From the IMG/VR virus record IMGVR_UViG_2698536677_000006, positions 1-12,575 of that record: a stretch of DNA of 12,575 nt, one strand, 5' to 3'. This DNA comes from a virus (Duplodnaviria; Heunggongvirae; Uroviricota; Caudoviricetes). The notes beneath the pieces were generated by a model, which searched no databases, was not told where the DNA came from, and saw only the letters and a program-made list of their open reading frames with translations. Below, one piece after another: positions 1 to 12,575 of this stretch (its first letter is position 1; each line of letters opens with the position of its first letter). A program made the translations under genes and the position numbers.

Positions 1-185
1 TCCGGCTCAGTTGCACCACTGACCACCACATCACCTTCTGCTGTAATCGCCTGCATCAGGGTATAAGGGGTTATGGCCACCGGACTACCAAACGGCTGCC
101 AGCCCTCTTTCAGTTTGTGTGTCAGCTTTTCCGCAAGGTCTGACGGCGACGCCGCCCTGACAACATCATAATGTTTAATCGACAT
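1..185 (-). CDS. Partial CDS (5' end only, continues past window start): small phage protein resembling the DUF1737-type proteins found just upstream of lysis genes in lambdoid prophages
   Basis: Hand translation of minus strand from ATG at 185..183 gives MSIKHYDVVRAASPSDLAEKLTHKLKEGWQPFGSPVAITPYTLMQAITAEGDVVVSGATEP with no stop before the window edge. GGGAGA Shine-Dalgarno about 8 nt upstream. Family call is from memory. Confidence 0.45.
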   Translation of the reverse strand, partial: MSIKHYDVVRAASPSDLAEKLTHKLKEGWQPFGSPVAITPYTLMQAITAEGDVVVSGATEP

Positions 186-271
186 CGAATTTCTCCCGTG
201 TACAGGAACAGAGTTAAAAAGCCGGAACCGGAATCAAATCACAGGATGGCCATCTGCCAGTGGCTGGTCGT

Positions 272-298
272 AAAAAAAAGGCCACGCCATGCGCAGCC
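272..298 (-). terminator. Candidate rho-independent terminator downstream of the TerB/peptide cassette
   Basis: Minus-strand RNA GGCUGCGC-AUG-GCGUGGCC (8-bp stem including two G-U pairs, 3-nt loop) followed directly by U8 (plus-strand A8 at 272-279). Confidence 0.4.
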
Positions 299-499
299 GG
301 AAATAAAGGGATAACGATGATAGTTTGAGAAAAACAGAAACAACACTTTTGTGGCAAAGCATGGTGCCGGGTGCCTCCCGGTGAATTCAGTATCAGCACC
401 TGAATCCGCGATTATCCCATATACCTGGTTGCTGATCGCCCCTCCGCACAGGGGGATTCACCATGCAGAAGTGTTTTTAATAAACAGCAAACAAAAAAA

Positions 500-667
500 T
501 CAAGCATTATGCAGGCTGTTTCTTTTTATCACCGGCCACAGCAATACCACAATGCCGCAGACCAGCACCCCATCCGCCAGCACCGACATGATTCTGCTGG
601 TGAAATCCACCATCACCACCAGAAACAGCAGGAGTGCAGCCACAGCCAGGCGCAGTTTTACCGTCAC
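500..667 (-). CDS. Small hydrophobic protein (55 aa, two predicted hydrophobic segments), translationally coupled to the upstream TerB gene
   Basis: Not in the ORF track (below 60 aa). Hand translation: VTVKLRLAVAALLLFLVVMVDFTSRIMSVLADGVLVCGIVVLLWPVIKRNSLHNA, stop TGA at 502..500. GTG start at 667..665 overlaps the TerB stop TGA (666..664) in a GTGA arrangement; GGAG lies 8 nt upstream. Confidence 0.3.
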   Translation of the reverse strand: MTVKLRLAVAALLLFLVVMVDFTSRIMSVLADGVLVCGIVVLLWPVIKRNSLHNA

Positions 668-1095
668 AGGTGATTCTCCAGACGAAGACCCAGAACACCG
701 GCAATCTCTTCCAGCACCTTGCGCTCTTCCGGCTCAATTTCGCCGTCTGCCTCCGCAATGGCCACCGCCACATCCAGCACATCTTCCGCTTCACGCGTAT
801 CGTGTTTCACATCCTCAATCTCGCGTAACGCGGCACGACGACCAATTTTAAAATTGGTATCCAGCTGACCGATAATGGTTGCGCTAATCGCATTAATTTC
901 CGAGGTAAACGCAGACAACGCAGGCTGATTACGTAAGACCTGTTCGATCTTCGCTTTCTCGGATGCCTCGCATTCACCATCTGCATAGGCCACCAGGTAT
1001 GCAGCGTTAATCACCGCCTGTGCCAGATCGCGTTTCTCAAACTTTTTAATTTCCGTTGCCGCTCTGCGGGCTTTTTTACCAAAAATACCAAACAT
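664..1095 (-). CDS. TerB-family (tellurite-resistance TerB-like) protein, about 143 aa
   Basis: ORF track 664..1167; likely real start is the internal ATG at 1095 (MFGIFGKK...) with AGGA 8 nt upstream. Two acidic helix motifs typical of TerB: AAYLVAYADGECEASEKAKIEQVL and VAVAIAEADGEIEPEERKVLEEIAGVLGL. Confidence 0.7.
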   Translation of the reverse strand: MFGIFGKKARRAATEIKKFEKRDLAQAVINAAYLVAYADGECEASEKAKIEQVLRNQPALSAFTSEINAISATIIGQLDTNFKIGRRAALREIEDVKHDTREAEDVLDVAVAIAEADGEIEPEERKVLEEIAGVLGLRLENHL

Positions 1096-1227
1096 CGTGA
1101 CGTTCCTTTGGGTGGGTGAGCCAACGCCCGGGAGCGATCTGCCCACAGAGAAAGTCACACTGACCACTCCGTAAGCTCACCCCCGAAAGGCTCTGTGGTT
1201 GATATGCGCCGGGCGTGGCGCAGATAC

Positions 1228-1251
1228 AAAAAAGGCCCGCCAAAGCGAGCC
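1228..1251 (-). terminator. Rho-independent terminator immediately 3' of the tRNA pair
   Basis: Minus-strand RNA GGCUCGC-UUUG-GCGGGCC (7-bp stem, one G-U pair) followed by U6 (plus A6 at 1228-1233). Confidence 0.5.
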
Positions 1252-1263
1252 TGGAAAATAAGT

Positions 1264-1340
1264 GTGGTGCGTTGTACTGGATTCGAACCAGTGACCGATT
1301 GCTTAGAAGGCAATTGCTCTGTCCGGCTGAGCTAACAACG
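1264..1340 (-). tRNA. tRNA-Arg (anticodon UCU), phage-type
   Basis: Reverse complement folds as a 77-nt cloverleaf: acceptor GCGTTGT/ACAACGC, D-arm GCTC-AGCCGGACA-GAGC, anticodon arm ATTGC-CTTCTAA-GCAAT (anticodon TCT), T-arm ACTGG-TTCGAAT-CCAGT, discriminator A, encoded CCA. Confidence 0.85.
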
Positions 1341-1421
1341 CAGAATACCGATAATGGACCGCCACCGGGGACTCCGAATCTCGCACAGGGTGACGTTCTT
1401 TCCTGATGAGCTAGTGGCGGT

Positions 1422-1497
1422 TGGTGGCTCTTGCTGGATTTGAACCAGCGACCTGGCGATTATGAGTCGCTCGCTCTCACCACTGAGCTAAAGGGCC
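1422..1497 (-). tRNA. tRNA with CAU anticodon, ileX-like (tRNA-Ile2, lysidine type) rather than elongator Met
   Basis: Reverse complement GGCCCTTTAGCTCAGTGGTGAGAGCGAGCGACTCATAATCGCCAGGTCGCTGGTTCAAATCCAGCAAGAGCCACCA: D-arm GCTC/GAGC, anticodon loop CTCATAA, T-loop TTCAAAT, encoded CCA. Strong resemblance to E. coli ileX as recalled. One C4:A69 mismatch in the acceptor stem. Confidence 0.75.
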
Positions 1498-1537
1498 GAT
1501 AACATAATGATAACGTTACAGAATAAATTCAGCAATA

Positions 1538-2596
1538 TCACTCTCTCTTTCTGATTAAATTCTGTACATCCCTTGCGGTCTGCTCAAAACGTTCAGCCTC
1601 CAGCTCGACACCAATTGCACGACGCCCCAGCGCCATCGCGGCTTTGACTGTCGAACCCGACCCCATGAAGAAATCTGCAACCAGGTCACCCGGACGACTG
1701 CTGGCGGTAATCATTTGCCGCAACATATCTGCCGGTTTTTCACAGGGATGTTTGCCCGGATAATACTGCACAGGCTTGTGCGTCCAGACATCCGTATAAG
1801 GAACGGCTGCCGATACGGAAAAATAACGCCGCAGTGATTTGTACTCTTCCAGCAGGCTGGCATACTGCCGGTTCAGCTCACTGTATGTGCTGACCAGTTG
1901 GTGATGTGGCTTTTCCAGTTCTCCCCGCTGATGTTTCTCTTCTGCCACCCGGGCAAACAGCACCTGAAGTTTTCTGTAATCATCCTCGTTCGGTAACTGC
2001 CACTGGCTGGCACTGAACCAGTGCGACACCATGTTTTTCTTTCCTGTGGCATCTGCAATCTGTTTTGCCGTTATCCCCAGGGCCGCGCGCGCATCACGAA
2101 AGTAAGAAATCAGCGGGGCCATCACATGCTGTTTCAGTGCACTGCCCTTCGCCGCATACCCGGCATCTTTCGGACGATACGGCCCCTGATAATGTTCCGC
2201 GAACAGAATGCGCTCTGTGGCGGGGAAATACGCCCTCAGGCTTTCCTTGTTGCATCCGTTCCAGCGTCCGGACGGCTTCGCCCAGATAATATGGTTCAGC
2301 ACACTGAAGCGTTCACGCATCATGATTTCGATATCAGATGCCAGGCGATGACCACAGAACAGGTAAAGACTTCCGGCAGGTTTCAGCACCCGCCAGAACT
2401 GCGCCAGACACTGGTCCAGCCACTTCAGGTAATCATCGTCGCCCTTCCACTGGTTATCCCAGCCCTCGGGCTTCACTTTAAAGTATGGCGGGTCTGTGAC
2501 TATCAGATCGACAGAGTTTTCCGGTAAGGTCTGGATAAATTCCAGGCAATCAGCGTTGATTAACTCACAACTGGATATTTTTACAGTATTAGCCAT
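1538..2596 (-). CDS. DNA N6-adenine (or N4-cytosine) methyltransferase, beta-class, orphan (no adjacent endonuclease)
   Basis: 352-aa ORF. Catalytic motif IV DPPY near the N-terminus (LIVTDPPYFKV) and SAM-binding motif I near the C-terminus (DLVADFFMGSGSTVKAA), the circularly permuted order typical of phage amino-methyltransferases. Confidence 0.85.
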   Translation of the reverse strand: MANTVKISSCELINADCLEFIQTLPENSVDLIVTDPPYFKVKPEGWDNQWKGDDDYLKWLDQCLAQFWRVLKPAGSLYLFCGHRLASDIEIMMRERFSVLNHIIWAKPSGRWNGCNKESLRAYFPATERILFAEHYQGPYRPKDAGYAAKGSALKQHVMAPLISYFRDARAALGITAKQIADATGKKNMVSHWFSASQWQLPNEDDYRKLQVLFARVAEEKHQRGELEKPHHQLVSTYSELNRQYASLLEEYKSLRRYFSVSAAVPYTDVWTHKPVQYYPGKHPCEKPADMLRQMITASSRPGDLVADFFMGSGSTVKAAMALGRRAIGVELEAERFEQTARDVQNLIRKRE

Positions 2597-2734
2597 AGAT
2601 CAATAAGCACTTCTCTGATAGGCTCATACCGCTTTTGCGCAAAGCAGATGGGCCTGAGGTTTGCTTGTGACCACAACGCATGAGCAGATGGCTGGTGAGT
2701 GCCCCTAACACCCACCAGCCGCCCATTACCACAA

Positions 2735-2760
2735 ATAAAAAAGCCTTCACTGAGGAAGGC
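2735..2760 (-). terminator. Terminator copy in the methylase leader (copy A); the upstream gene is missing because of the N gap
   Basis: Same hairpin as at 3222..3247 and 6207..6232: GCCTTC-ACTGAG-GAAGGC followed on the minus strand by a U-run. Confidence 0.4.
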
Positions 2761-2780
2761 GTCTGTAACAACCGAACTGA

Positions 2781-2791
2781 NNNNNNNNNNN
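2781..2791. other. Run of 11 N: scaffold gap or assembly join
   Basis: Literal n characters. Sequence on each side belongs to different copies of the same repeated module (2597-2780 matches 6069-6252; 2792-3083 matches 2305-2596). Confidence 0.95.
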
Positions 2792-3083
2792 TGAAGCGTT
2801 CACGCATCATGATTTCGATATCAGATGCCAGGCGATGACCACAGAACAGGTAAAGACTTCCGACAGGTTTCAGCACCCGCCAGAACTGCGCCAGACACTG
2901 GTCCAGCCACTTCAGGTAATCATCGTCGCCCTTCCACTGGTTATCCCAGCCCTCAGGCTTCACTTTAAAGTACGGCGGGTCCGTGACTATCAGGTCAACA
3001 GAATTTTCGGGTAACGACCGGATAAATTCCAGGCAGTCGGCGTTGATTAACTCACAACTGGATATTTTTACAGTATTAAGCAT
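2792..3083 (-). pseudogene. 5' fragment of a second, diverged copy of the adenine methyltransferase gene, truncated by the N gap
   Basis: ORF track 2589..3083 begins MLNTVKISSCELINADCLEFIRSLPENSVDLIVTDPPYFKV and runs into XXXX; it differs from the 1538..2596 copy at A2L, QT to RS and A to V. The part of the ORF below 2781 is out-of-frame read-through, not gene. Confidence 0.6.
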
Positions 3084-3221
3084 GGATCATTAAGCCTGTC
3101 TCTGATAGGCTCATTCTGCTTTTGCGCAAAGCAGTGGGCCTGAGGTGTGCTTGTGAACCCAACGCATGAGCAGATGGCTGGTGGGTGCCCCTAACACCCA
3201 CCAGCCGCCCATTTACCACAA

Positions 3222-3247
3222 ATAAAAAAGCCTTCACTGCGGAAGGC
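3222..3247 (-). terminator. Rho-independent terminator overlapping the 3' end of the small CDS 3234..3431
   Basis: Minus-strand RNA GCCUUC-CGCAGU-GAAGGC followed by U6-7 (plus A-run 3222-3229). The stop codon of the small CDS lies in the hairpin loop. Confidence 0.5.
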
Positions 3248-3431
3248 GTCTGTAACAACCGAACTGATAGTCTGCCAGACCCGCCATAACCAGCTGGGTC
3301 AGTATTAACTGGCAGCGTTCGCGTGAAAGGTAAGTATTCTGCGCAATCTCCCCGACTGTCGCCGGGTCGTTAACGCTTAATTCATTAAACACCACTCTGG
3401 CGGTTTCTGTCATATCCTGCTGTTTTAGCAT
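3234..3431 (-). CDS. Small conserved protein (65 aa), first ORF downstream of the Q-position gene; function unknown
   Basis: Internal ATG of ORF 3234..3518 (MLKQQDMTETARVVFNELSVNDPATVGEIAQNTYLSRERCQLILTQLVMAGLADYQFGCYRRLPQ). The same protein with only three substitutions is encoded at 6219..6416 although the two DNA copies differ, which favours real coding. Confidence 0.45.
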   Translation of the reverse strand: MLKQQDMTETARVVFNELSVNDPATVGEIAQNTYLSRERCQLILTQLVMAGLADYQFGCYRRLPQ

Positions 3432-3553
3432 GTCTTTTTCCCTTTTCCGGTTAACGTGACACACCAATAACTCTTGTCGAAAAAGCCAGCAAGCTGAAAG
3501 ACAGGTATTCACCGCCACCAGCGCGTTTACTGTACTGACGCGATTTCAGTCAT

Positions 3554-3575
3554 AAAAAACCCGCCAGGCGGCGGG
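3554..3575 (-). terminator. tR'-like intrinsic terminator downstream of the Q gene
   Basis: Minus-strand RNA CCCGCC-GCCU-GGCGGG (6-bp GC stem) followed by U6 (plus A6 at 3554-3559), about 80-100 nt after the Q stop, as expected for the lambda PR'/tR' arrangement. Confidence 0.5.
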
Positions 3576-3657
3576 GTGTAAAAAATCTTCTAACGTCAGG
3601 CATAAAACGCCCATCGTTAGAGCAAATTTACCACAGATTCGGGAAAAATCAACAACA

Positions 3658-4479
3658 CTATCGCGTTACCCTCTTTAACTGCCGCTCCGCCCATGCCTCT
3701 TCAATGTCAAACCGAACCACCAACGTATCGTAAAAGCGTTTCACTGATTTTTTCCACGTATCAAGCGTGATAGCACTCGTCACTTTGCATATGGCATTAA
3801 ATGCCTCCGTTGATGGCAGCCTTTCACAGCCACGACCACCACAACGCTGGCAATCTCTGATAACAGGCATACCACGTTTTACCGACTCTTCACGATGAAT
3901 GGCGACACCACGCCCACGGCAATCCTTACAGGCGGTGGAAACCTCACCCTTTCCGCCACACTCCGGACAGGCAACTTTTACCACCTCCCTGACTTTTTTC
4001 CATTCTTCCCAGTAAGACGGATACACGCCTTTTGTGCACTTTGCCCACACTGGTGGCTTACCATCCGGATACTGGATCTTGTTTGTAAAAACCTCGCTTT
4101 CAATAAATTTTTTTCCGTGACAGCAGGGGCACTGTTTTTTGCTCGCCGCGCTACGGGCATAATCTTCAAACGCATACGAAGCCATAATGCGCATCACTAC
4201 CGGTTTTATTTCTGCCGGAAGTTTTCTCAACGCCGCCACACGATCGCACCGACTGAGTGCATAATCTGCCAGTAATTCTGTTGCCCGCGCCCTGTCATTC
4301 ATACTGATGCCCATTTTCCCCAGGAACGCAGAAAACCCCATCTCAGCCCGATTCTGTGTCATGCCCTGCGCGGCCATCACATCAGTGATACTCAGCGCAT
4401 CTTTTGACGTTGAGGCCGATGCATCGGTCAGGCCAGGGGATTTTGGGGAGTAGTATTTCGGTAAATCTTCCAGTTTCAT
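3658..4479 (-). CDS. Late-gene antiterminator Q, lambda-Q family, with an expanded cysteine-rich domain
   Basis: 273 aa. Recalled lambda Q matches at the N-terminus (KYYSPKSP vs KFHSPKSP; TDVMAA) and C-terminus (FYDTLVV vs LYDALVV; ends VTR). Four CxxCxGxG repeats (CPCCHGKK, CPECGGKG, CKDCRGRG, CQRCGGRG). ATG overlaps the RusA stop (ATGA). Confidence 0.8.
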   Translation of the reverse strand: MKLEDLPKYYSPKSPGLTDASASTSKDALSITDVMAAQGMTQNRAEMGFSAFLGKMGISMNDRARATELLADYALSRCDRVAALRKLPAEIKPVVMRIMASYAFEDYARSAASKKQCPCCHGKKFIESEVFTNKIQYPDGKPPVWAKCTKGVYPSYWEEWKKVREVVKVACPECGGKGEVSTACKDCRGRGVAIHREESVKRGMPVIRDCQRCGGRGCERLPSTEAFNAICKVTSAITLDTWKKSVKRFYDTLVVRFDIEEAWAERQLKRVTR

Positions 4480-4856
4480 TTTTTGACCTGCTCTTCATGC
4501 ATTATGGGGTAAATCTTCACCCCCATACGTCCACCAGATACTGGCTGACCACGAACGATATTGATTTCATCAAACTGCTCATCGTCCATTAACACTCCCG
4601 CATGCGTCAGCGCATCCAGCGGTGCTTTCAGGATATTGTCCAGGTCGCGACGACGCTTATCCGGTGGCTCTGCAATCACCTTTATCGCCAGCCTTCCGGA
4701 CAGGATTAATTTCAGCCGCTGCTGGCGAACAATAAGCGCCACAGCCCGGCGATAACGCTTTCCCTCCTCCGAGATAAAATATGTGCTGCCACGGCGTCGC
4801 CAGTAAGTGTTCACCGTTGGCGGGTAAGGCAAAACAAATTCTATGCGTTCAGTCAT
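4476..4856 (-). CDS. rusA: RusA-family Holliday junction resolvase
   Basis: 126 aa. Catalytic spacing D-x-D-x3-K ... D as in RusA (RRRDLDNILKAPLD ... LMDDEQ). Directly abuts the upstream YdfU-like stop (TAAATG) and overlaps the Q start. Confidence 0.85.
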   Translation of the reverse strand: MTERIEFVLPYPPTVNTYWRRRGSTYFISEEGKRYRRAVALIVRQQRLKLILSGRLAIKVIAEPPDKRRRDLDNILKAPLDALTHAGVLMDDEQFDEINIVRGQPVSGGRMGVKIYPIMHEEQVKK

Positions 4857-5912
4857 TTATGCTTTCCACTTCAGAACACCCGAATTTCTCGCGTGCATTA
4901 AAAAACGAATCAGCAACAACAGCTGGCTGCCGTGTTTTTCTTCAAAATCTTTTACCCCGGCGTGTAGTTCGCTATGGCATTTACGGCACAGCGGAATAAC
5001 AAACAAATCATCAGCCTTTGTTCCCATCCCTCCCAGTCCATGACCAATGATGTGATGCGGATCATCTGCCTGATTGCCACACGTCATGCATTTCTGCGTT
5101 TTTACCCAACGCGTGTATACAGGCATCTCTTCCCGTTGTGATTTCTGGCGCTGGAGATACTGAGCCGGTGACTCCGGATCAACGGCAATGCTGACCACCG
5201 TCTTTTCCTGTGGCGGGTTTTGCTGGTGGGCGTGAGGCAGCGGCGCAAGATTTTTTGTGCGCTGCTTCAGTATGCTGGTGGCGGTCTGCTCTCCCGGTAC
5301 GATGTCGCTTTCACGGTACATTGAGCGGATTTTTTCCGCACGCAACCCCAGCGAACGACGTAATACCGCTTCCGGTAGCGCGTCCGCCACCTGATTGCGG
5401 ACCGCCCACCAGGATAATTCAGCCAGCGATAATTCCCGTTCCTGCGAGCCATTCATTGCATGGCGTATGACGTCAATCATCCATGCAGACAGGTTTTGGT
5501 GAGCAAGTTGCCCGAGTGATTCGGAGGTCTGGTCGCGCAGCTGGTTGTCGCAGTGCCAGCACAACACCATTGCGCCGGTACCATAACGGTGAATGACGGT
5601 TTCACTGTGGTGATAATCGCCGTGTGGCCACTGGCAGGATTTAACATGGCGCAGTAACCAGTCAGACAATGCGCCAGCGCCACCAGCAGCACGAATCACT
5701 CGTTCGTCGCTGAAAAATGGCAGTAATGATTTATCCTCCGCCAGCGGCTGGCGAACGGCAGGAACGACCCCGGACGGCAGATTACGCATGCTTTTCGGTT
5801 CCGGCTCCACCAGTACCCGGGTATTGTGGAATACCGGCATGGATTCACGGCCCGGCTTAACGATCACCAGCCCGAGTTCCGGTACCAGAACAGGTCGAAG
5901 TAATACCCGCAC
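4857..5912 (-). CDS. YdfU-like (DUF968) prophage protein with C-terminal HNH-like zinc motif
   Basis: Homologous to the 7572..8621 copy; GTG start at 5912..5910 preceded by GGAGG. C-terminal CxxC ... HH ... C..C..H..LH motif (CMTCGNQADDPHHIIGHG ... CRKCHSELH). The ORF-track extension to 6068 is a chimera across the n at 5957. Confidence 0.7.
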   Translation of the reverse strand: MRVLLRPVLVPELGLVIVKPGRESMPVFHNTRVLVEPEPKSMRNLPSGVVPAVRQPLAEDKSLLPFFSDERVIRAAGGAGALSDWLLRHVKSCQWPHGDYHHSETVIHRYGTGAMVLCWHCDNQLRDQTSESLGQLAHQNLSAWMIDVIRHAMNGSQERELSLAELSWWAVRNQVADALPEAVLRRSLGLRAEKIRSMYRESDIVPGEQTATSILKQRTKNLAPLPHAHQQNPPQEKTVVSIAVDPESPAQYLQRQKSQREEMPVYTRWVKTQKCMTCGNQADDPHHIIGHGLGGMGTKADDLFVIPLCRKCHSELHAGVKDFEEKHGSQLLLLIRFLMHARNSGVLKWKA

Positions 5913-5956
5913 GTTACCTCCAGATGCGTTGCTGGAATGTGCGGGACGGACGCGGT

Positions 5957-6068
5957 NTGGCGGGTCTGTGACTATCAGATCGACAGAGTTTTCCGGTAAG
6001 GTCTGGATAAATTCCAGGCAATCAGCGTTGATTAACTCACAACTGGATATTTTTACAGTATTAGCCAT
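5957..6068 (-). pseudogene. Orphaned 5' end (37 codons) of the adenine methyltransferase gene, joined through a single n to the YdfU-like leader
   Basis: Encodes MANTVKISSCELINADCLEFIQTLPENSVDLIVTDPP, identical to the start of the 1538..2596 gene. 5958-6068 matches 2486-2596. The join falls at a shared GGCGGG microhomology. Confidence 0.55.
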
Positions 6069-6206
6069 AGATCAATAAGCACTTCTCTGATAGGCTCATA
6101 CCGCTTTTGCGCAAAGCAGATGGGCCTGAGGTTTGCTTGTGACCCCAACGCATGAGCAGATGGCTGGCAGGTGCCGCTAACACCCACCAGCCGCCCATTA
6201 CCACAA

Positions 6207-6232
6207 ATAAAAAAGCCTTCACTGAGGAAGGC
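6207..6232 (-). terminator. Rho-independent terminator overlapping the 3' end of the small CDS 6219..6416
   Basis: GCCTTC-ACTGAG-GAAGGC hairpin plus A-run on the plus strand (U-run on the minus transcript). Confidence 0.5.
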
Positions 6233-6416
6233 GTCTGTAACAACCGAACTGATAATCTGCCAGACCCGCCATAACAAGCTGGGTCAGTATTAACTGGCAG
6301 CGTTCGCGTGAAAGATAAGTGTTCTGCGCAATTTCCTCGACGGTCGCCGGTTCGGTGACGCTTAATTCATTAAACACCACTCTGGCGGTTTCGGTCATAT
6401 CCTGCTGTTTTAGCAT
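6219..6416 (-). CDS. Small conserved protein (65 aa), second copy
   Basis: Internal ATG of ORF 6219..6539. Identical to the 3234..3431 product except ND to TE and G to E. Confidence 0.45.
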   Translation of the reverse strand: MLKQQDMTETARVVFNELSVTEPATVEEIAQNTYLSRERCQLILTQLVMAGLADYQFGCYRRLPQ

Positions 6417-6539
6417 GCCTTTTTCCCTTTTCCGGTTAACGTGACACACCAATAACTCTTGTCGAAAAAGCCAGCAAGCTGAAAGAACGGTATTAATAAC
6501 CACCAGCGAATTTATTGCGCTGCTGTATATTACGGACAC

Positions 6540-6561
6540 AAAAAAACCACCTTCCGGTGGC
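6540..6561 (-). terminator. tR'-like intrinsic terminator downstream of the Q-position gene (second module)
   Basis: Minus-strand RNA CCACC-GGAA-GGUGG followed by U8 (plus A8 at 6540-6547), about 80 nt below the stop of the 6640..7203 gene. Confidence 0.5.
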
Positions 6562-6639
6562 TTCCTTGTGCGAAAAAACTTGCATTTCGCCTCGCGATAC
6601 AGCTTTGCGAAGCTTATACGGATTGAAGCAGTTTATTGA

Positions 6640-7203
6640 TCAGTTTGCAACATTTTTCTCTGTAACAAAAGCCATGCGCATGGGGGCATATAACATAAAT
6701 TCAGATACCCCCAACCATTGATCAATTCGGCGTCTGCACGTAACCAACGACCAATCAGGATGATCTGCATTTAACCTTTCGGCCATTTTCAGTTTGCTCA
6801 TTCCCCGTCCTTCGTACCTTTGCCGGAGAACATTGATTAGCCCGGGATATTCCCCAAGCACCTCACTGATAACGCGATCAATAATCAACGCCTCTGTGTC
6901 TGTACAATGTGACAACCAGCTCTTCTGCTTTCCTCTTGTCATATCCCGAAAAAATGCCTCAAGTTCCGGTTTTTCCAGCCCGGATTTCTTCATTCTGCGT
7001 AAAACCTCATTAACTGCTGTTTTCGTCAGCTTTTTCGAAACCAGTAACCGGTTAAACATATTTCCGGATTTACCCCCACCGATATACGACCACCGCCCCC
7101 ACATCCGTAATTTCCCCTGGATCCAGACTGCTTCCAGCGTGTTCAGGCGTAAATGTTCGCCGCTTTTGCCTGTAATTTCCGGATATATCATATTTACGCT
7201 CAC
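6640..7203 (-). CDS. Q-position protein of a different sequence family (putative alternative late antiterminator)
   Basis: 187-aa ORF in the same slot as the lambda-type Q of the other module: start (GTG 7203, or ATG 7191) overlaps the RusA stop, and a tR'-like terminator follows. No sequence similarity to the 3658..4479 protein. Function inferred from position only. Confidence 0.45.
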   Translation of the reverse strand: MSVNMIYPEITGKSGEHLRLNTLEAVWIQGKLRMWGRWSYIGGGKSGNMFNRLLVSKKLTKTAVNEVLRRMKKSGLEKPELEAFFRDMTRGKQKSWLSHCTDTEALIIDRVISEVLGEYPGLINVLRQRYEGRGMSKLKMAERLNADHPDWSLVTCRRRIDQWLGVSEFMLYAPMRMAFVTEKNVAN

Positions 7204-7559
7204 TCACTCTCAATTTTGTAAATCTTCACACCCAGCCGTCCACCAGATACTGGCTGACCACGTACAATATTGATTTCATCAAACTGCTCGTCATCAATGA
7301 GCACTCCCGCATGCGTCAGCGCATCCAGCGGTGCTTTCAGAATGTTGTCCAGGTCGCGACGACGCTTATCCGGTGGCTCTGCAATCACCTTTATCGCCAG
7401 CCTTCCGGACAGGCTTAATTTCAGCCGCTGCTGGCGAACAATAAGCGCCACAGCCCGGCGATAACGCTCACCGGCTTTTGATACAAAATATGTGCTGCCA
7501 CGACGTCGCCAGTAGGTGTTCACCGTCGGCGGGTAAGGCAAAACAAACTCTATGAGCAT
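7200..7559 (-). CDS. rusA: RusA-family Holliday junction resolvase (second copy)
   Basis: 119 aa, near-identical to the 4476..4856 product; same DLDN...K...D motif. Confidence 0.85.
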   Translation of the reverse strand: MLIEFVLPYPPTVNTYWRRRGSTYFVSKAGERYRRAVALIVRQQRLKLSLSGRLAIKVIAEPPDKRRRDLDNILKAPLDALTHAGVLIDDEQFDEINIVRGQPVSGGRLGVKIYKIESE

Positions 7560-7571
7560 CAGTCACCTCTT

Positions 7572-8621
7572 TTACCCGAGCACGCCAGTCGCAAAGGCGT
7601 GATCAAGAAAACGAAAAATTAAATCAACCTGGGAACCATGCTTTTCTTCGAACGCCAGCGGATCCGCATGAAGCTCGTTGTGATGCTCCCGACACAGCGG
7701 TAGCGTGAAAATATCGTGGGATTTTGTTCCCATTCCACCCTGACCATGACCAATCAGATGATGAGGATCGTCCGCTGGCTTACCACAACACGCACACGGC
7801 TGTGTCTTTACCCAGCGTGTGTATTTCTCATTTACCCAGCGGCGACGTTTAGGTCGTTTCATGAAGGATTCCGGAGACTCCGGATCAACGGCAATGCTGA
7901 CCACCGTCTTTTCCTGTGGTGGGTTCTGTTGCTGGTGGGTGTGAGGCGGTAGCGCAATATTTTTTGTGCGCTGCTTCAGTATGCTGGTGGCGGTCTGTTC
8001 TCCCGGTATGATGTCGCTTTCACGGTATACGGAGCGGATTTTTTCCGCCGGTAATCCCAGAGAACGACGCGCTACTGCCTCAGGTAGTGCATCCACCACC
8101 TGATTGCAGGCCGCCCACCAGGATAATTCGGCCAGCGATAACTCCCTCTCCTGCGTACCGCTTATTGCGTGACCGATGACGTCAATCATCCATGCTGACA
8201 GGTTTTGATGAGCAAGTTGCTCGAGTGATTCGGATGTCTGGTCACGCAGCTGGTTGTCACAGTGCCAGCACAACACCATCGCGCCGGTACCGTAACGGTG
8301 AATGACTGTTTCGCTGTGATGATAATCGCCGTGTGGCCACTGGCAGGATTTCACGTGACGTAATAACCAGTCAGACAGTGCACCTGCACCACCTGCTGCA
8401 CGAATTACCCGCTCATCGCTGAAAAATGGTAGTAATGTTTTATCCTCAGCCAACGGCTGGCTAACGGCTGCAACGACGCCGGACGGAAGACTGCGCATGT
8501 TTTTGGGTTCCGGTTCCACCAATATTCTGCCGTTATGGAATACTGACATTGATTCACGGCCTGGCTTAACGATAACCAGACTGAGTTCCGGTACCAGAAC
8601 AGGTCGAAGTAATACCCGCAC
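7572..8621 (-). CDS. YdfU-like (DUF968) prophage protein with C-terminal HNH-like zinc motif
   Basis: 349 aa. GTG start at 8621..8619 with GGAGG 5 nt upstream, which overlaps the stop of the upstream small gene. C-terminus CACCGKPADDPHHLIGHGQGG ... CREHHNELH. Confidence 0.75.
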   Translation of the reverse strand: MRVLLRPVLVPELSLVIVKPGRESMSVFHNGRILVEPEPKNMRSLPSGVVAAVSQPLAEDKTLLPFFSDERVIRAAGGAGALSDWLLRHVKSCQWPHGDYHHSETVIHRYGTGAMVLCWHCDNQLRDQTSESLEQLAHQNLSAWMIDVIGHAISGTQERELSLAELSWWAACNQVVDALPEAVARRSLGLPAEKIRSVYRESDIIPGEQTATSILKQRTKNIALPPHTHQQQNPPQEKTVVSIAVDPESPESFMKRPKRRRWVNEKYTRWVKTQPCACCGKPADDPHHLIGHGQGGMGTKSHDIFTLPLCREHHNELHADPLAFEEKHGSQVDLIFRFLDHAFATGVLG

Positions 8622-8622
8622 G

Positions 8623-8895
8623 TTACCTCCAGATGCGTTGCTGATATGTGCGGGACGGACGCGGCGGGCGTTCGGAATAAGGGAGCCTGACGGAAATTAT
8701 CCAGTGTCGGAAGTCAGGATTGAGGCCTTTCTGAAACTGGTATCCACGTCTGCGGTAATTCTGAATCAGCCACTCGGCCTGTTCTTCAGTGCATTGGTCA
8801 TGCTGGTACCAGTCATATTTGAATGCGTGAGAGCGCCGTCCGTGTCTGCTGGCAGGGTCGGCATCAGAATTGTGGTGTTTGGTATTGTGCGCCAT
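8623..8895 (-). CDS. Small prophage protein (about 90 aa), function unknown
   Basis: Internal ATG (MAHNTKHH...) of ORF 8623..8976. The longer ORF-track start would run through the terminator at 8968-8993, so the internal start is preferred. Stop TAA lies 1 nt before the YdfU-like GTG. Confidence 0.4.
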   Translation of the reverse strand: MAHNTKHHNSDADPASRHGRRSHAFKYDWYQHDQCTEEQAEWLIQNYRRRGYQFQKGLNPDFRHWIISVRLPYSERPPRPSRTYQQRIWR

Positions 8896-8967
8896 CGGTT
8901 GTCTCTGCTGGCGCAGCAGGTGCCAGTTGTTCAGGCTGGCGTGTGGATTGTAAACCAGAATGCCAGG

Positions 8968-8993
8968 AAAAAACAAAACCCGCGAAGCGGGTT
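8968..8993 (-). terminator. Strong rho-independent terminator separating the restriction-modification island from the nin-region genes
   Basis: Minus-strand RNA AACCCGC-UUCG-GCGGGUU (7-bp stem, UUCG tetraloop) followed by UUGUUUUUU, about 75 nt downstream of the endonuclease stop. Confidence 0.65.
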
Positions 8994-9065
8994 AGTAAAA
9001 ATGTACTGAAGTCAATGACGTGCCATCACAGTTAAAATATGACAGACTCTATTTACGTAGAGATG

Positions 9066-9944
9066 TCAGACTGCAAGATCCAAGGGAAGATCAGAAATAT
9101 CCTTTAATCTTTTACCATTAACCATCACGGAAAGCATGTCAGCTGCATCGCTGAGCCCCAGTATTTCAACTGCTGATATAAGTTCATAAAGCGCAAAATG
9201 ATACACGCAATCTATATCACCAGTACCAAGAGCAATAGACGCCAGACGACTTGGAGTAGGCTCAGCAGTAACAACCATTACATGAGGGAGATTTCCCTTA
9301 CGGTTGCGAATAAGATTTAATGCCTCAGAACGAGCATTCTGGGCCCGGTCGCTTCTTATTGTCCATTTGCAGGAAATACTTGCGTGTAATATTGGTTTCC
9401 CACCATTCGAACTCCTGAGAGCTGACATGCGGGTAACAGAATCATCCACCAGTAATTCAGGACTGTTGATAACTTGATCACATTCAGGTTCTCTTTCAAC
9501 AATAATATCTGGTGAAATCGTATAATCACTCCCCAGTGCAGCAGCTAGCTGAGGATTACTTTTTGCAGCACTATCCAATGCTATAAGATGGGCATATTGT
9601 TCATATTTAGCTATCTCTAATCTGTTTCTACCAGAAACCTGATGTACATTCCATTTTCCAGGGCGTAAGTGGCTGAGTTTAAAAAAGGTTTTTTCTATAA
9701 ACTCTGCGCAGATACTCTCAAACTGATTACCAGATGTTTGCCCTGCAACACGTTCACCAATCGTTTCAGCCTGCAAGAAGCGAGCAATTTCTCTTGCTAT
9801 AGCTTTACTGTTTTTGTTACTGCTATCTGCGTTACTAACAACTCCGGCAGTATTAATTGTGAGCGTATTCAGTAACAATTGGGCATGAAACTCCTTTCTG
9901 GCTTCAGCAAAACCAACTATGCTGTCAACCAAATCTCCATTCAT
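9066..9944 (-). CDS. Type II restriction endonuclease, NgoMIV/Cfr10I/Bse634I-like (predicted CCGG-core specificity)
   Basis: 292 aa from ATG 9944 (MNGDLV...), with AGGAAA Shine-Dalgarno and only 13 nt after the methyltransferase stop. Active-site pattern SPD(146) ... SCK(193) ... E(207): D-to-K 47 and K-to-E 14 residues, the spacing recalled for NgoMIV D140/K187/E201. Recognition-type motif K-x3-R-x-D-R (KWTIRSDR). Confidence 0.6.
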   Translation of the reverse strand: MNGDLVDSIVGFAEARKEFHAQLLLNTLTINTAGVVSNADSSNKNSKAIAREIARFLQAETIGERVAGQTSGNQFESICAEFIEKTFFKLSHLRPGKWNVHQVSGRNRLEIAKYEQYAHLIALDSAAKSNPQLAAALGSDYTISPDIIVEREPECDQVINSPELLVDDSVTRMSALRSSNGGKPILHASISCKWTIRSDRAQNARSEALNLIRNRKGNLPHVMVVTAEPTPSRLASIALGTGDIDCVYHFALYELISAVEILGLSDAADMLSVMVNGKRLKDISDLPLDLAV

Positions 9945-9957
9945 TTCTGGATTTCCT

Positions 9958-11082
9958 TCAGGCTGCTTGACTATTCTTACTGATGTTATTCTTATACCGT
10001 CCCTGCAAAACTCCATACACATATTGTGCGATTTTTGCCGCAAATAGCGGTGGAACAGCATTCCCGATCTGCTTTGCAATCTCAGTTTTTGAACCGGTAA
10101 AAATGAAATTATCAGGAAAAGACATTAATCTCGCTGCCTCACGATGAGTTATTGGCCGATCCTCTTCCGGATGTAAATATCGCCCTTTCTCCGGTTTGAA
10201 AAACTCAGTACGAATCGTTACTGAAGGTTTGTCCCACCACAGACGTCCAAACAAATCGGTCCCTCCAGATTTCTTTTTTAGCCAGCACGCCGGGGTTATA
10301 TCAGGTCTTTTTTTCTGTAAATCGAAACGGTTACCTCCTGGTGGAACCGCTTTATATCGCTCCAGAGAAACAGGAGTGGGATTACGCCCAAAATGTAAGT
10401 TCAGCGGAGGAAGTTCATTACGAATATCAGTTCCAACAGGAGCAGGTAAGTCACCAATTGCATCACGCGTACAGACCCATTCAGGCAAAGCGACATCCTT
10501 ATCAGGGGAACGATGCGTTGGTGCTGGCGGGAACGCCGGAATACTATGCACATCGAAGAGTTCTCGTTTGATACCGATTGCTATCGTTCGTTTTCTTGTC
10601 TGAGGTACTCCATAGTCAGCAGTATTCAACACCATTGGATTAAGCAGAATAAAGCCCATGGATTTCGCTCTAAACGTAATGTCCGCAAACTCATCGCTTA
10701 TCAGCAATCCGGGGACATTTTCCATGACGAACATACAAGCCCTTGAACGCTCAATGACATCCATATAAGGCTCCCACAATGCTCTTCGGTGATCACCATA
10801 ACGATTCTTATTCAATAAACTGAATCCCTGACACGGGGGGCCACCTATGACCACATCAGCCTCAGGAACAGTATTGCTGGATGCCCACTCCTCAATATTT
10901 GCCTGAACTCCATGCAAACCAAAATTGGCATTGTAGGTATTTATAGCTGCAGCATTATTATCAATAGCAAGGATACTTTCAAAGTAGTCAGACATCTCTC
11001 CATGAAGAAAACCATAAGATAATCCACCTGCCCCACAAAAGAGGTCTATCACTCTGAATTTATTTAATTCTTTCATCCGCAT
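9958..11082 (-). CDS. DNA cytosine-5 methyltransferase (Type II restriction-modification methylase)
   Basis: 374 aa with the canonical m5C motifs in order: I DLFCGAGGLSYGF, IV GGPPCQGFS, VI ENVPGL, VIII QTRKR, X GNAVPP. GAGG Shine-Dalgarno before the start. Confidence 0.9.
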   Translation of the reverse strand: MRMKELNKFRVIDLFCGAGGLSYGFLHGEMSDYFESILAIDNNAAAINTYNANFGLHGVQANIEEWASSNTVPEADVVIGGPPCQGFSLLNKNRYGDHRRALWEPYMDVIERSRACMFVMENVPGLLISDEFADITFRAKSMGFILLNPMVLNTADYGVPQTRKRTIAIGIKRELFDVHSIPAFPPAPTHRSPDKDVALPEWVCTRDAIGDLPAPVGTDIRNELPPLNLHFGRNPTPVSLERYKAVPPGGNRFDLQKKRPDITPACWLKKKSGGTDLFGRLWWDKPSVTIRTEFFKPEKGRYLHPEEDRPITHREAARLMSFPDNFIFTGSKTEIAKQIGNAVPPLFAAKIAQYVYGVLQGRYKNNISKNSQAA

Positions 11083-11165
11083 CCATATGCCTCAGATTAA
11101 TGTTGAGCGTCTTACAGGACGCGTAATGTTAACTGGGGCTTTCTCTATCTGCCTTTTGGTGTTCA

Positions 11166-11190
11166 TGCCTGAGGCAGACAGCCTCAGGCA
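11166..11190. promoter_or_regulatory. Perfect 9-bp inverted repeat (TGCCTGAGG-n7-CCTCAGGCA) upstream of the methyltransferase gene; candidate operator or RNA hairpin
   Basis: Read directly from the sequence. The arm sequence TGCCTCAG recurs at 11094-11101, overlapping the methyltransferase ribosome-binding site. Confidence 0.3.
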
Positions 11191-11260
11191 CCCGCAGCAA
11201 TTCTACTTAACTCACGTCACCTCGCCAATATGAAATCAATCAGAAAGGTGATCCATAAAA

Positions 11261-11947
11261 TCACTCCTTCTCTTCTTTTCCGTAGTGGAGTTGGCCAATT
11301 TTGATAAGAGGGCGTCCCTGAGATTTGCGGTGTAGATTGGTATCGCGCAGAGAATACACACAGCCACAATATTCCTGCTGATAGAATTTTTCGCGCTTGC
11401 TGATTTCAATCATACGGGACGAGCCGCCCTGCTTGCGCCAGTTATAATCCCAGTACACCATACCCGGATAATGCGCAACAGCTCGCCGCCCACACTCGTT
11501 AACCTGCTGCATATTTTTCCAGCGTGAAATGCCCAGTGAACTACTGATCACACTGAAACCATTTTCAGCAGCGTACAACGCTGTCCGCTCAAAACGCATG
11601 TCAAAACACATGGTACAACGGATCCCCCTCTCAGGCTCCCATTCCATTCCTTTGGCACGTTCAAACCAGTTGTCGGTGTCGTAATCAGCATCGATAAACG
11701 GCACGCCGTGTTGTTCAGCAAAGCGAATATTTTCATCCTTACGAATTAAATACTCTTTCTGAGGATGAATGTTCGGGTTGTAGAAAAAGATGGTGTAGTC
11801 GATTCCCGAGGCCTGAAGCGCCTCCATCACTTCACCGGAACATGGAGCACAGCAAGAGTGCAGTAGTAGTTTGTTTGCCCCGTTTGGAAGCTCCAATTTA
11901 GGCCGTTTGAAATCAGCAATAGTCATAAATATTTTTATTGGGGTCAT
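11261..11947 (-). CDS. DUF208 / QueH-like protein (putative cobalamin-independent epoxyqueuosine reductase homolog)
   Basis: 228-aa ORF with the N-terminal [11 protein letters not shown] signature recalled for QueH/DUF208 and further conserved Cys residues (CTMCFD, YCGC). Start may be ATG 11947 or 11926; neither has a clear Shine-Dalgarno. Confidence 0.5.
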
Positions 11948-12100
11948 GAAAATAGCACAGAGTGTAGCATCAGAGCAGGGCTATCGGGAATATATGTCTA
12001 AATCTGGTAATATCTGGTTTTGACGCAAAGCGGACAACCACGCTGGCTCTACCCTGCGCCATGAAAATGTCAATTCACATCTGAACTAATGCTCTTTAAT

Positions 12101-12526
12101 CTAGTAACGTCTAAAATATCTAACATTTCCTTGATAAAATGCCAGTACACGCTGCATAGCTTCGCTCTTCCGGCACTCGCGACAGATTATATTCAGGCGC
12201 CTGTCGTAGCGGCGTATTTCGCCGTCTGGTAACGACCAGATAAGGTCCGGATCAACCACTGCAGGTTTCTTCACCTTTGCCCTTGAGAGTTTTTTGCGAG
12301 CATTTTGCCAGTCCTTACGCGCCTGTTCAGACGGGAATAACCCGTAACCAGAGTTGTATACATCGCCACTGGCAACCAGCTCTCTGGCGAGAACACTCAT
12401 CAGATATCTTGTCGCACCTGTCCTGGCTTCCAGTTGCCGCAACGTCTCGCGACCGCTCAGACGTACAAGTTCAACAACCTGCCCTTTAATTTTTTCCCGC
12501 TCTTCTTGTGTAAATACTTTTGCCAT
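12101..12526 (-). CDS. Hypothetical basic protein (141 aa), possible DNA-binding protein
   Basis: ORF 12101..12541; the first ATG at 12526 (MAKVFTQEEREK...) has GGAGG 5 nt upstream, whereas the ORF-track start is a TTG. Lys/Arg-rich centre (ARKKLSRAKVKKP) and a single CRECRK. No family recognised. Confidence 0.5.
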   Translation of the reverse strand: MAKVFTQEEREKIKGQVVELVRLSGRETLRQLEARTGATRYLMSVLARELVASGDVYNSGYGLFPSEQARKDWQNARKKLSRAKVKKPAVVDPDLIWSLPDGEIRRYDRRLNIICRECRKSEAMQRVLAFYQGNVRYFRRY

Positions 12527-12575
12527 AAGCGCCTCCGGCAATCACTTTTCCGATACAACACGGCGGGAAGAATCA

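Follow-up and report, generated by a model that had tools for sequence, protein, structure and literature searches.

What is encoded by the short reading frame that overlaps the stop codon of a TerB-domain gene in this prophage, and what might its product do for the phages that carry it? The window (the whole stretch of DNA analysed, 12,575 nucleotides, positions 1 to 12,575 of virus record IMGVR_UViG_2698536677_000006) is the late region of a lambdoid prophage, where the frame runs on the minus strand from a GTG start at 667–665 to a TGA stop at 502–500 (500–667, stop included) and specifies a hydrophobic peptide of 55 amino acids, (M)TVKLRLAVAALLLFLVVMVDFTSRIMSVLADGVLVCGIVVLLWPVIKRNSLHNA. 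The start overlaps the stop codon of the upstream gene, tciA (TGA, 666–664), by 4 nt as GTGA (664–667, minus strand), and a GGAG Shine-Dalgarno sequence (676–679, minus strand) is situated within the final codons of tciA, 8 nt 5′ of the GTG. The junction reads CTGGAGAATCACCTGTGACGG on the minus strand, and the region of the Shine-Dalgarno sequence and start is kept in E. coli alleles as CTGGAGAA(T/C)CA(C/T)C(T/A)GTGA. The original prediction had pointed to a GTG start overlapping the TerB stop as GTGA and to an upstream GGAG, both of which are borne out by these coordinates, and had proposed that the frame is translationally coupled to TerB, a proposal supported by the GTGA overlap together with the placement of the GGAG inside the end of tciA.

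The frame is almost certainly a real protein gene, and one with a name: it is tciB, a phage gene of the DUF3927 family that is already known, and no new gene is described here. TciB matches Pfam DUF3927 (PF13064) over profile positions 2–50 of 53 (62.3 bits, cut-off 25, E 4.3e-17) and PHROG 1470 (“TciB-like”) over its full length (E 4e-30). The 801-bp tciA-tciB region is present as 100% identical copies in several complete E. coli genomes, and at a 100% identical locus RefSeq records a DUF3927 family protein (WP_000216636.1) next to a “tellurite resistance TerB family protein”, which is tciA. The names tciA and tciB originate from phage P1, where the order is tciA-tciB-tciC, and are also used in the annotation of phage JLK-2012; tciB is annotated in phage 434 as well. 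Thus, the earlier description of the frame as unannotated holds solely for the gene track that accompanied the original prediction, since RefSeq, PHROGs and the P1 and JLK-2012 annotations already contain tciB or DUF3927. Our search of the literature for a functional study of TciB found none, returning annotation-level mentions and one CRISPRi table only.

Comparison with relatives establishes that tciB is under purifying selection. Among 21 divergent sequences, dN/dS has a median of 0.20 and a maximum of 0.48 (Nei-Gojobori, 122 pairs with usable dS), as against 0.91 and 2.64 for the shifted frames of the same DNA, and the entropy at the three codon positions amounts to 0.78, 0.37 and 1.49. 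The aligned relatives are 34–61% identical to TciB of the window and the alignment is nearly gap-free, with D21 invariant and R6, S28, D32 and P45 each conserved to at least 90%. Members of DUF3927 are characterized by a length of about 50–60 amino acids, two hydrophobic segments flanking a (V/I)DF(T/S)(S/G)xxxSxxxDG core and a C-terminal WPxxK, all of which are found in TciB of the window. The family is small: a search of 1.84 billion representatives gives 62 clusters (50% identity) and a profile search gives 388 (90% identity); in both searches the clusters come essentially from Enterobacterales and their phages, to which phage records add members from Pseudomonas.

The composition of the peptide suggests that TciB is an integral inner-membrane peptide, which may form a hairpin of two transmembrane (TM) segments with both termini in the cytoplasm (N-in/C-in). 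The two strongly hydrophobic stretches noticed in the original prediction are clearly present: Kyte-Doolittle means over 11 residues peak at 3.3 (residues 7–20) and 3.1 (residues 33–44), and the GRAVY value of the whole peptide is 1.43. The two segments are separated by DFTSRIMS, lysine and arginine residues are located at both ends, and each half has a favourable octanol sum on the Wimley-White scale. AlphaFold2 (AF2) models the TciB monomer as one continuous helix (residues 2–54, pLDDT 91) with no hairpin, and the two-TM topology of TciB itself is therefore unproven. In the N-in/C-in arrangement, which is derived from the charge distribution, only about 3 + 8 residues would face the cytoplasm. 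The C-terminal tail varies between alleles, such that at least three different C-termini are encountered among E. coli alleles whose TciA proteins are at least 97% identical.

The upstream gene, tciA (664–1095, minus strand), encodes a TerB-domain protein of 143 amino acids, with an ATG start at 1095–1093, a TGA stop at 666–664 and a ribosome-binding site, AGGA (1104–1107, minus strand), that we read from the sequence 8 nt ahead of the ATG. TciA matches Pfam TerB (PF05099; 60.5 bits, cut-off 24.4, E 2.4e-16) and PHROG 632 (E 2.6e-69), and its profile matches the TerB structure PDB 2JXU (E 1.2e-10). The AF2 model is an all-helical bundle (pLDDT 87) for which the best Foldseek matches are 2H5N and 2OU3, both TerB-like; matches to DUF533 and to NCBIfam DjlA are weak and sub-threshold. 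Residues 1–22 are basic (+8/−2) and the remainder of the protein is acidic. The N-terminal tip bears the sequence MFGIF, the hydrophobic moment of the N-terminus reaches 0.6–0.7 and residues 1–20 are modelled with low pLDDT, features that are compatible with a flexible membrane-binding tail.

Do TerB genes of this type always carry the overlapping small frame, as the original prediction had wondered? For the TciA subfamily the answer is positive, at 21 of 21 informative loci and in many phages besides: tciB almost always follows a TciA-type terB gene directly and overlaps its end. An alignment search of species-representative genomes with TciA returned 22 loci, whose TciA proteins are 38–100% identical to that of P1; one of these is truncated where its contig stops, and at each of the other 21 a hydrophobic two-segment frame of 49–55 amino acids is located at the terB stop. 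All except one of these frames (20/21) match a TciB HMM (E 1e-17 to 1e-27), the exception, at locus L102, being a divergent positional analogue. The junctions read GTGA, TGATG or TAATG at the 19 loci where they are clear (TAATG at L102); at locus L110 there is no obvious start at the terB stop.

The same pair is present in phages P1 and D6, in the virulent N4-like phages Pollock and FSL SP-058, in the lambdoid phages Fostie and Evi, in Klebsiella phage 5 (also lambdoid) and in Pantoea phage LIET2. It also occurs in Pseudomonas phage ZY21, with tciB annotated from a start too far downstream, and in jumbo Machinavirus phages infecting Erwinia and Salmonella, whose DUF3927 proteins have diverged and are devoid of the DFTS/ADG motif. 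Overall, the stop of terB overlaps or abuts the start of tciB in at least 12 phage lineages, and strict adjacency with overlap is seen at more than 40 divergent loci. The position of the pair varies, from the late region in E. coli to the vicinity of cro and DUF1391 in Serratia prophages and to a site between the repressor and kilA-N/kil in Yersinia prophages. Thus, tciA and tciB move jointly among phages of Enterobacterales and of some Pseudomonas, temperate as well as virulent, that are not related to one another, and the pair, found at different genome positions, behaves as a mobile two-gene cassette.

Several searches define the reach of these counts. Scanning species genomes with the 55-amino-acid peptide, a short and low-complexity query, gave 600 pattern matches, none of which was confirmed by tblastn; tblastn of TciB against phages, with residues 1–20 masked by the low-complexity filter, returned at least 29 records; and the IMG/VR scan with TciA retrieved copies of at least 97% identity only, and serves the counts of alleles and disruptions, not of diversity. 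Four apparent TerB-DUF3927 fusions (P0130, P0172, P0235 and P0294) were considered as linkage evidence and rejected as frameshift or gene-calling artefacts. Within E. coli, 2,822 of 5,426 complete genomes match at least part of the 801-bp region, and in 799 of these genomes the match covers 80% or more of its length. A single genome can contain up to 15 matching places, and the tciAB copies are therefore redundant.

The pairing has exceptions. Among 77 complete E. coli prophage copies that are nearly identical, 5 have a broken tciB and an intact tciA; most of the lesions are indels of one base in homopolymers, and one is a nonsense codon. Loss of the small frame beside an intact terB, the pattern that the original prediction had set against itself, is thus seen in E. 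coli, but is rare and absent from divergent lineages. The reverse is also encountered: at locus L112 an intact tciB stands beside a frameshifted tciA, and phages 434 and 2B8 carry an orphan tciB without tciA, behind an unrelated polytopic membrane protein. The divergence of TciA correlates only weakly with that of TciB (Spearman 0.36). TciA proteins 90–93% identical to that of the window are paired with TciB proteins of just 50–62% identity, TciA proteins that are almost the same also stand beside the jumbo-phage TciB variants without the DFTS/ADG motif, and one type of TciB occurs with both P1-type and window-type TciA. With a correlation this weak and pairs so mismatched, a specific co-evolving interface between the two proteins is not evident.

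TciA-like TerB proteins were found in 131 phage records, and where DUF3927 is missing, another membrane protein often takes its place beside the phage TerB. In Pseudomonas phages AF and Zuri, homologous single-TM frames of 67–73 amino acids without DUF3927 lie directly 3′ of terB; that of AF is unannotated and overlaps the terB stop as ATGA, and its counterpart in Zuri starts 4 nt downstream. In the Vibrio Schitoviridae MS02 and BUCT194, a TerC-family gene adjoins terB, with the order TerB-TerC-TerB in BUCT194; among the neighbours of TciA-like TerB proteins, TerC-type genes were found in Vibrio phages only. No obvious membrane partner is seen beside terB in phages PMBT3 and K481. That other phages exchange TciB yet keep TerB argues that the constant need is for TerB plus a membrane partner.

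The setting of the pair in the window bears on when it would be expressed. Along the minus strand, the gene for the antiterminator Q (3658–4479) is followed by DNA methylase genes, tRNA-Ile2/Met(CAT), tRNA-Arg(TCT), tciA and tciB, and then, 3′ of tciB, by the sRNA STnc100, a terminator and the start of the gene for a SASA/NanS-p esterase that precedes the lysis genes. An intrinsic-terminator-like hairpin with a T-run (1233–1252, minus strand) lies between tRNA-Arg and tciA, and a second such hairpin, with T8 (280–298, minus strand), lies 3′ of tciB and STnc100. A simple consensus scan between the upstream terminator (1252–1233) and tciA found no sigma-70-like promoter, and expression in this prophage is therefore probably Q-dependent and late. 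The slot occupied by tciAB is the late-region position that the stx genes hold in Stx phages. The pair would thus belong to a Q-antiterminated late transcript and be made during lytic growth. STnc100 itself (323–495, minus strand; Rfam RF02076, 104.7 bits, gathering score 47) is a prophage sRNA directly 3′ of tciB that is a neighbour of the protein module and stands outside it, and it is the same neighbour in other tciAB prophages.

The reading that we favour, and hold to be somewhat probable, is that TciB is an inner-membrane partner of TciA produced by coupled translation, the two forming a dispensable accessory module that phages use during lytic growth; the partnership with TciA, taken on its own, we regard as evenly balanced. 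In such a module, tciB would be translated by coupling, through the GTGA overlap and the internal GGAG, from an mRNA shared with tciA, and the membrane-embedded TciB would place the acidic cytoplasmic TciA at the inner membrane or couple it to the membrane. So arranged, TciA and TciB may make up the smallest form of a two-protein module, comparable to TerB–TerC or to the tethered domains of DjlA and YebE, whose task would be to alter the condition of the envelope or membrane (for example the handling of ions or metals, or the ability to withstand membrane insults) and not to serve as the device for lysis. The main support for TciB as a partner comes from the alternative membrane proteins beside TerB in AF, Zuri and the Vibrio phages. 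In addition, TerB has been reported to be membrane-attached and DjlA to possess a membrane-tethered TerB-like domain. As regards dispensability, P1 tciA, tciB and tciC scored as non-essential by CRISPRi, with efficiencies of plating of 0.65–1.3 (PMC10695390).

A bolder extension of the partner reading, which we offer as speculative and consider improbable, is that a phage TerB of the TciA type may always need an adjacent membrane partner and that these partners are interchangeable, with TciB serving as a minimal oligomeric substitute for TerC in which the conserved, membrane-embedded aspartates D21 and D32 would line a path for cations or metals that the acidic TerB domain gates or senses. If this were true, the partners would comprise DUF3927/TciB in enteric phages and some of Pseudomonas, the protein of 67–73 amino acids in AF and Zuri, and TerC in Vibrio, and virulent and temperate phages alike would control membrane or ion state in the course of infection, for instance against depolarising host defences or colicins.

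The best surviving alternative to a TciA–TciB partnership, albeit a rather unlikely one, is that TciB acts alone as a small inner-membrane effector, with TciA merely co-transcribed or regulatory. Such an effector could block the entry of superinfecting DNA, or could modulate a host membrane protein through the DFTS...S...DG motif, which probably faces the periplasm. Exclusion by small membrane proteins of phages is exemplified by T4 Imm and HK97 gp15. The most conserved residues of TciB (D21, F22, T23, S28 and D32) lie in the stretch that links the hydrophobic segments or where these segments end, and not in the short cytoplasmic tails, the alleles of TciA and TciB are shuffled against each other, and tciB persists as an orphan in 434 and 2B8 and beside a tciA pseudogene. 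A lone effector would not, however, be expected from the strict adjacency and start/stop overlap with terB that is maintained across the divergent loci at varied genome positions, nor from the retention of TerB in other phages where another membrane protein replaces TciB.

We consider it improbable that TciB is a membrane-permeabilising toxin or a holin-like peptide, the possibilities raised in the original prediction, with TciA as its inhibitor or regulator in a toxin–antitoxin (TA)-like or lysis-timing pair. An antitoxin-first layout with overlapping genes is typical of TA operons, and here an acidic protein is encoded first and a small hydrophobic protein second, with a 4-nt overlap; the size, hydrophobicity and basic ends of TciB are also like those of small membrane toxins and class II holins, and the lambdoid pair is situated shortly 5′ of the lysis cassette. 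Yet DUF3927 is the only Pfam match, with no holin or toxin family, and a role as a toxin is likewise unsupported by PADLOC, where TciB matches no toxin family. Further weight against the holin reading comes from the canonical holins that genomes with tciB encode separately, at annotated downstream genes of homologous prophages and phages, and tciB contains no dual-start motif. Moreover, the pair is found among early/replication genes in N4-like phages and far from lysis genes in both N4-like and jumbo phages. Orphan copies of tciB persist without tciA, and the P1 knock-downs had no effect, that of tciA, the putative inhibitor, included, which caused no loss of plating (PMC10695390).

A still smaller probability attaches to the sensor/effector layout of abortive infection (Abi) with which the pair had also been compared, in which TerB would sense infection and TciB would act as the membrane effector of a prophage system protecting the lysogen. 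Defence morons are frequent in prophages, and TerB-like domains are present in some catalogued defence systems. TciA itself has a weak match to PADLOC PDC-S48 (E 0.004, 14 bits) that is below a meaningful threshold. The classical ter operon, terB included, has been linked to phage inhibition and colicin resistance. However, neither protein has a significant match in PADLOC-DB, TciB having none at all, and the cassette is carried by N4-like and jumbo phages that are obligately virulent, for which there is therefore no lysogen to protect. The lack of a sigma-70-like promoter for tciA in the simple consensus scan and the placement of the pair between two terminators in a probably Q-dependent late region also speak against a system of this kind.

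Finally, there is next to no likelihood that the frame is a chance one 3′ of terB, or part of the 5′ flank or promoter region of STnc100, and makes no protein: it is short and begins with GTG, its composition is biased, its antisense frame is likewise open and the sRNA starts 5 nt past its stop, but the comparative data effectively refute such an origin, by the selection specific to the tciB frame and by a curated Pfam family whose conserved alignment keeps its motifs across genera at 34–61% identity, and tciB is retained in settings that lack STnc100 (P1, N4-like phages, Serratia and Yersinia).

TciB is thus preferably read as a membrane partner of TciA, encoded with it by a compact and widespread cassette of lambdoid, P1-like, N4-like and jumbo phages, of which over half of complete E. 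coli genomes match at least part. A role of the TerB domain at the membrane would bear on the long-unexplained ter phenotypes (tellurite, colicin and phage resistance) as well as on the TerB-like domain of DjlA.

Among known systems, the small inner-membrane peptides of phages and prophages are one point of comparison. TciB resembles class II holins and pinholins, T4 Imm and GhoT-type toxins in its size, its two hydrophobic stretches and its basic termini. It differs from the small phage membrane peptides in that it has no match to their families, lies outside the lysis cassette, bears its own conserved polar motif and is dispensable in P1. The closest counterpart is the pair of P1 itself. P1 TciB belongs to the same family as TciB of the window (a significant HMM match, with about 50% identity over the global alignment and lengths of 54–55 amino acids), shares the VDFTS...S..DG...WP..K motif and is likewise encoded directly 3′ of tciA with overlapping stop and start. 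The P1 locus is distinguished by a third small gene, tciC, which has no counterpart in the window, and by a junction that reads TGATG instead of GTGA. Furthermore, the P1 pair is located in the tRNA/ban region, whereas that of the window occupies the lambdoid late region, between Q and the tRNAs on one side and nanS-p and the lysis genes on the other, with STnc100 following.

As in TerB-TerC of the terZABCDE operon, a soluble acidic TerB-domain protein is encoded in tciAB beside a putative integral membrane protein. The membrane components are of very different build, TerC being a polytopic protein of about 300 amino acids, and TciB a peptide of 55 amino acids with at most two membrane segments and no TerC (PF03741) signal. 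Moreover, TerZ, TerA, TerD and TerE are absent beside tciAB, the phenotypes of the ter operon being resistance to tellurite, colicins and phages. A similar principle is found in DjlA and YebE (DUF533), in which a TerB-like domain is anchored on the cytoplasmic side of the inner membrane, as proposed for TciAB. TciA lacks the J domain of DjlA, and whereas DjlA and YebE have their membrane helix fused to the TerB-like domain, TciAB would supply the helix in trans, from the translationally coupled gene.

The gene tciB, which encodes the 55-aa DUF3927 peptide, is followed on the same strand by an STnc100-family prophage sRNA (window 323-495, minus strand; Rfam RF02076, 104.7 bits), which starts 5 nt beyond the tciB stop codon and ends ahead of a terminator at window 298-280. 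Because a -10-like hexamer, CATAAT, sits inside the 3' end of tciB (about window 512-507), the putative STnc100 promoter and the coding sequence of tciB may overlap. The sRNA likewise lies 3' of tciB, with variable spacing, at several more loci from E. coli and Enterobacter (L001, L003, L013, L023, L026, L039 and L093). No STnc100 was detected at P1, Klebsiella phage 5, Fostie, L103, Serratia and Yersinia, six loci from outside the E. coli/Enterobacter group, or at phage 434, L074 and L113, three loci of the E. coli type. On the opposite strand, a 54-aa frame lies open across tciB (window 509-673, plus strand), and the corresponding frame is free of stops in nearly all tciB homologues; this is most simply explained as a by-product of hydrophobic codon composition, rather than as evidence of a gene.

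Phage 434 (L002 2567-2725) and phage 2B8 carry an orphan tciB that has a TTG start, lacks coupling and lies 85 nt behind an unrelated polytopic membrane protein of ~250 aa, which occupies the place of tciA, the TerB-domain gene. Nucleotide homology to the window begins within tciB at these loci, marking a recombination junction. For Pseudomonas phage ZY21, the annotation of the DUF3927 ORF (L131 about 987-1174) begins at an internal GTG and gives 39 aa; an in-frame GTG 3 nt past the TerB stop yields the full 62-aa, two-segment protein.

The tciAB cassette is adjoined by tRNA genes in the window (1265-1497) as well as in L005, L122, L123, L128 and L131. The adjacency recurs across unrelated phage types, encompassing lambdoid prophages, P1, D6, the jumbo Machinavirus phages and ZY21, but may reflect mere clustering of accessory genes.

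Elsewhere in the window, a DUF968-RusA-Q-like module occurs twice in tandem (3658-8621, minus strand), first as DUF968 (7572-8621), RusA (7200-7559) and the Q-like DUF1133 (6640-7203), and then as DUF968 (4857-6068), RusA (4476-4856) and Antiterm Q (3658-4479). The two modules are of different types, and their arrangement suggests that the nin/Q region is recombinant or duplicated. Minus-strand genes of the prophage at 9066-10079 and 9958-11082 encode an NgoMIV-type restriction enzyme and a C5 cytosine methylase, respectively; another, at 11261-11947, encodes a QueH epoxyqueuosine reductase homologue, and Rfam matches a sok antitoxin RNA at 11013-11193. Immediately upstream of a full-length 352-aa methylase (1538-2596, minus strand), and overlapping it, is a 164-aa ORF (2589-3083, minus strand) whose match to the N6_N4 methylase domain is confined to the first 70 positions at the N-terminal end; this ORF is likely a remnant or partial duplication.

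In some other phages, different membrane proteins accompany TerB. Behind the TerB gene of Pseudomonas phage AF and phage Zuri, a conserved single-TM ORF of 67-73 aa (L125 1132-1353 in AF, where it is unannotated; L130 1143-1346 in Zuri) takes the place of DUF3927, its start overlapping the TerB stop (ATGA) in AF and lying 4 nt downstream of the TerB gene in Zuri. The Zuri product labels look shifted, 'dCTP deaminase' being assigned to TerB and 'tellurite resistance protein' to the small ORF. In the Vibrio Schitoviridae MS02 (L127 1-597) and BUCT194 (L133 376-1395), the gene directly adjoining that of the TciA-like TerB encodes a TerC/Alx-family membrane protein, the order in BUCT194 being TerB-TerC-TerB.
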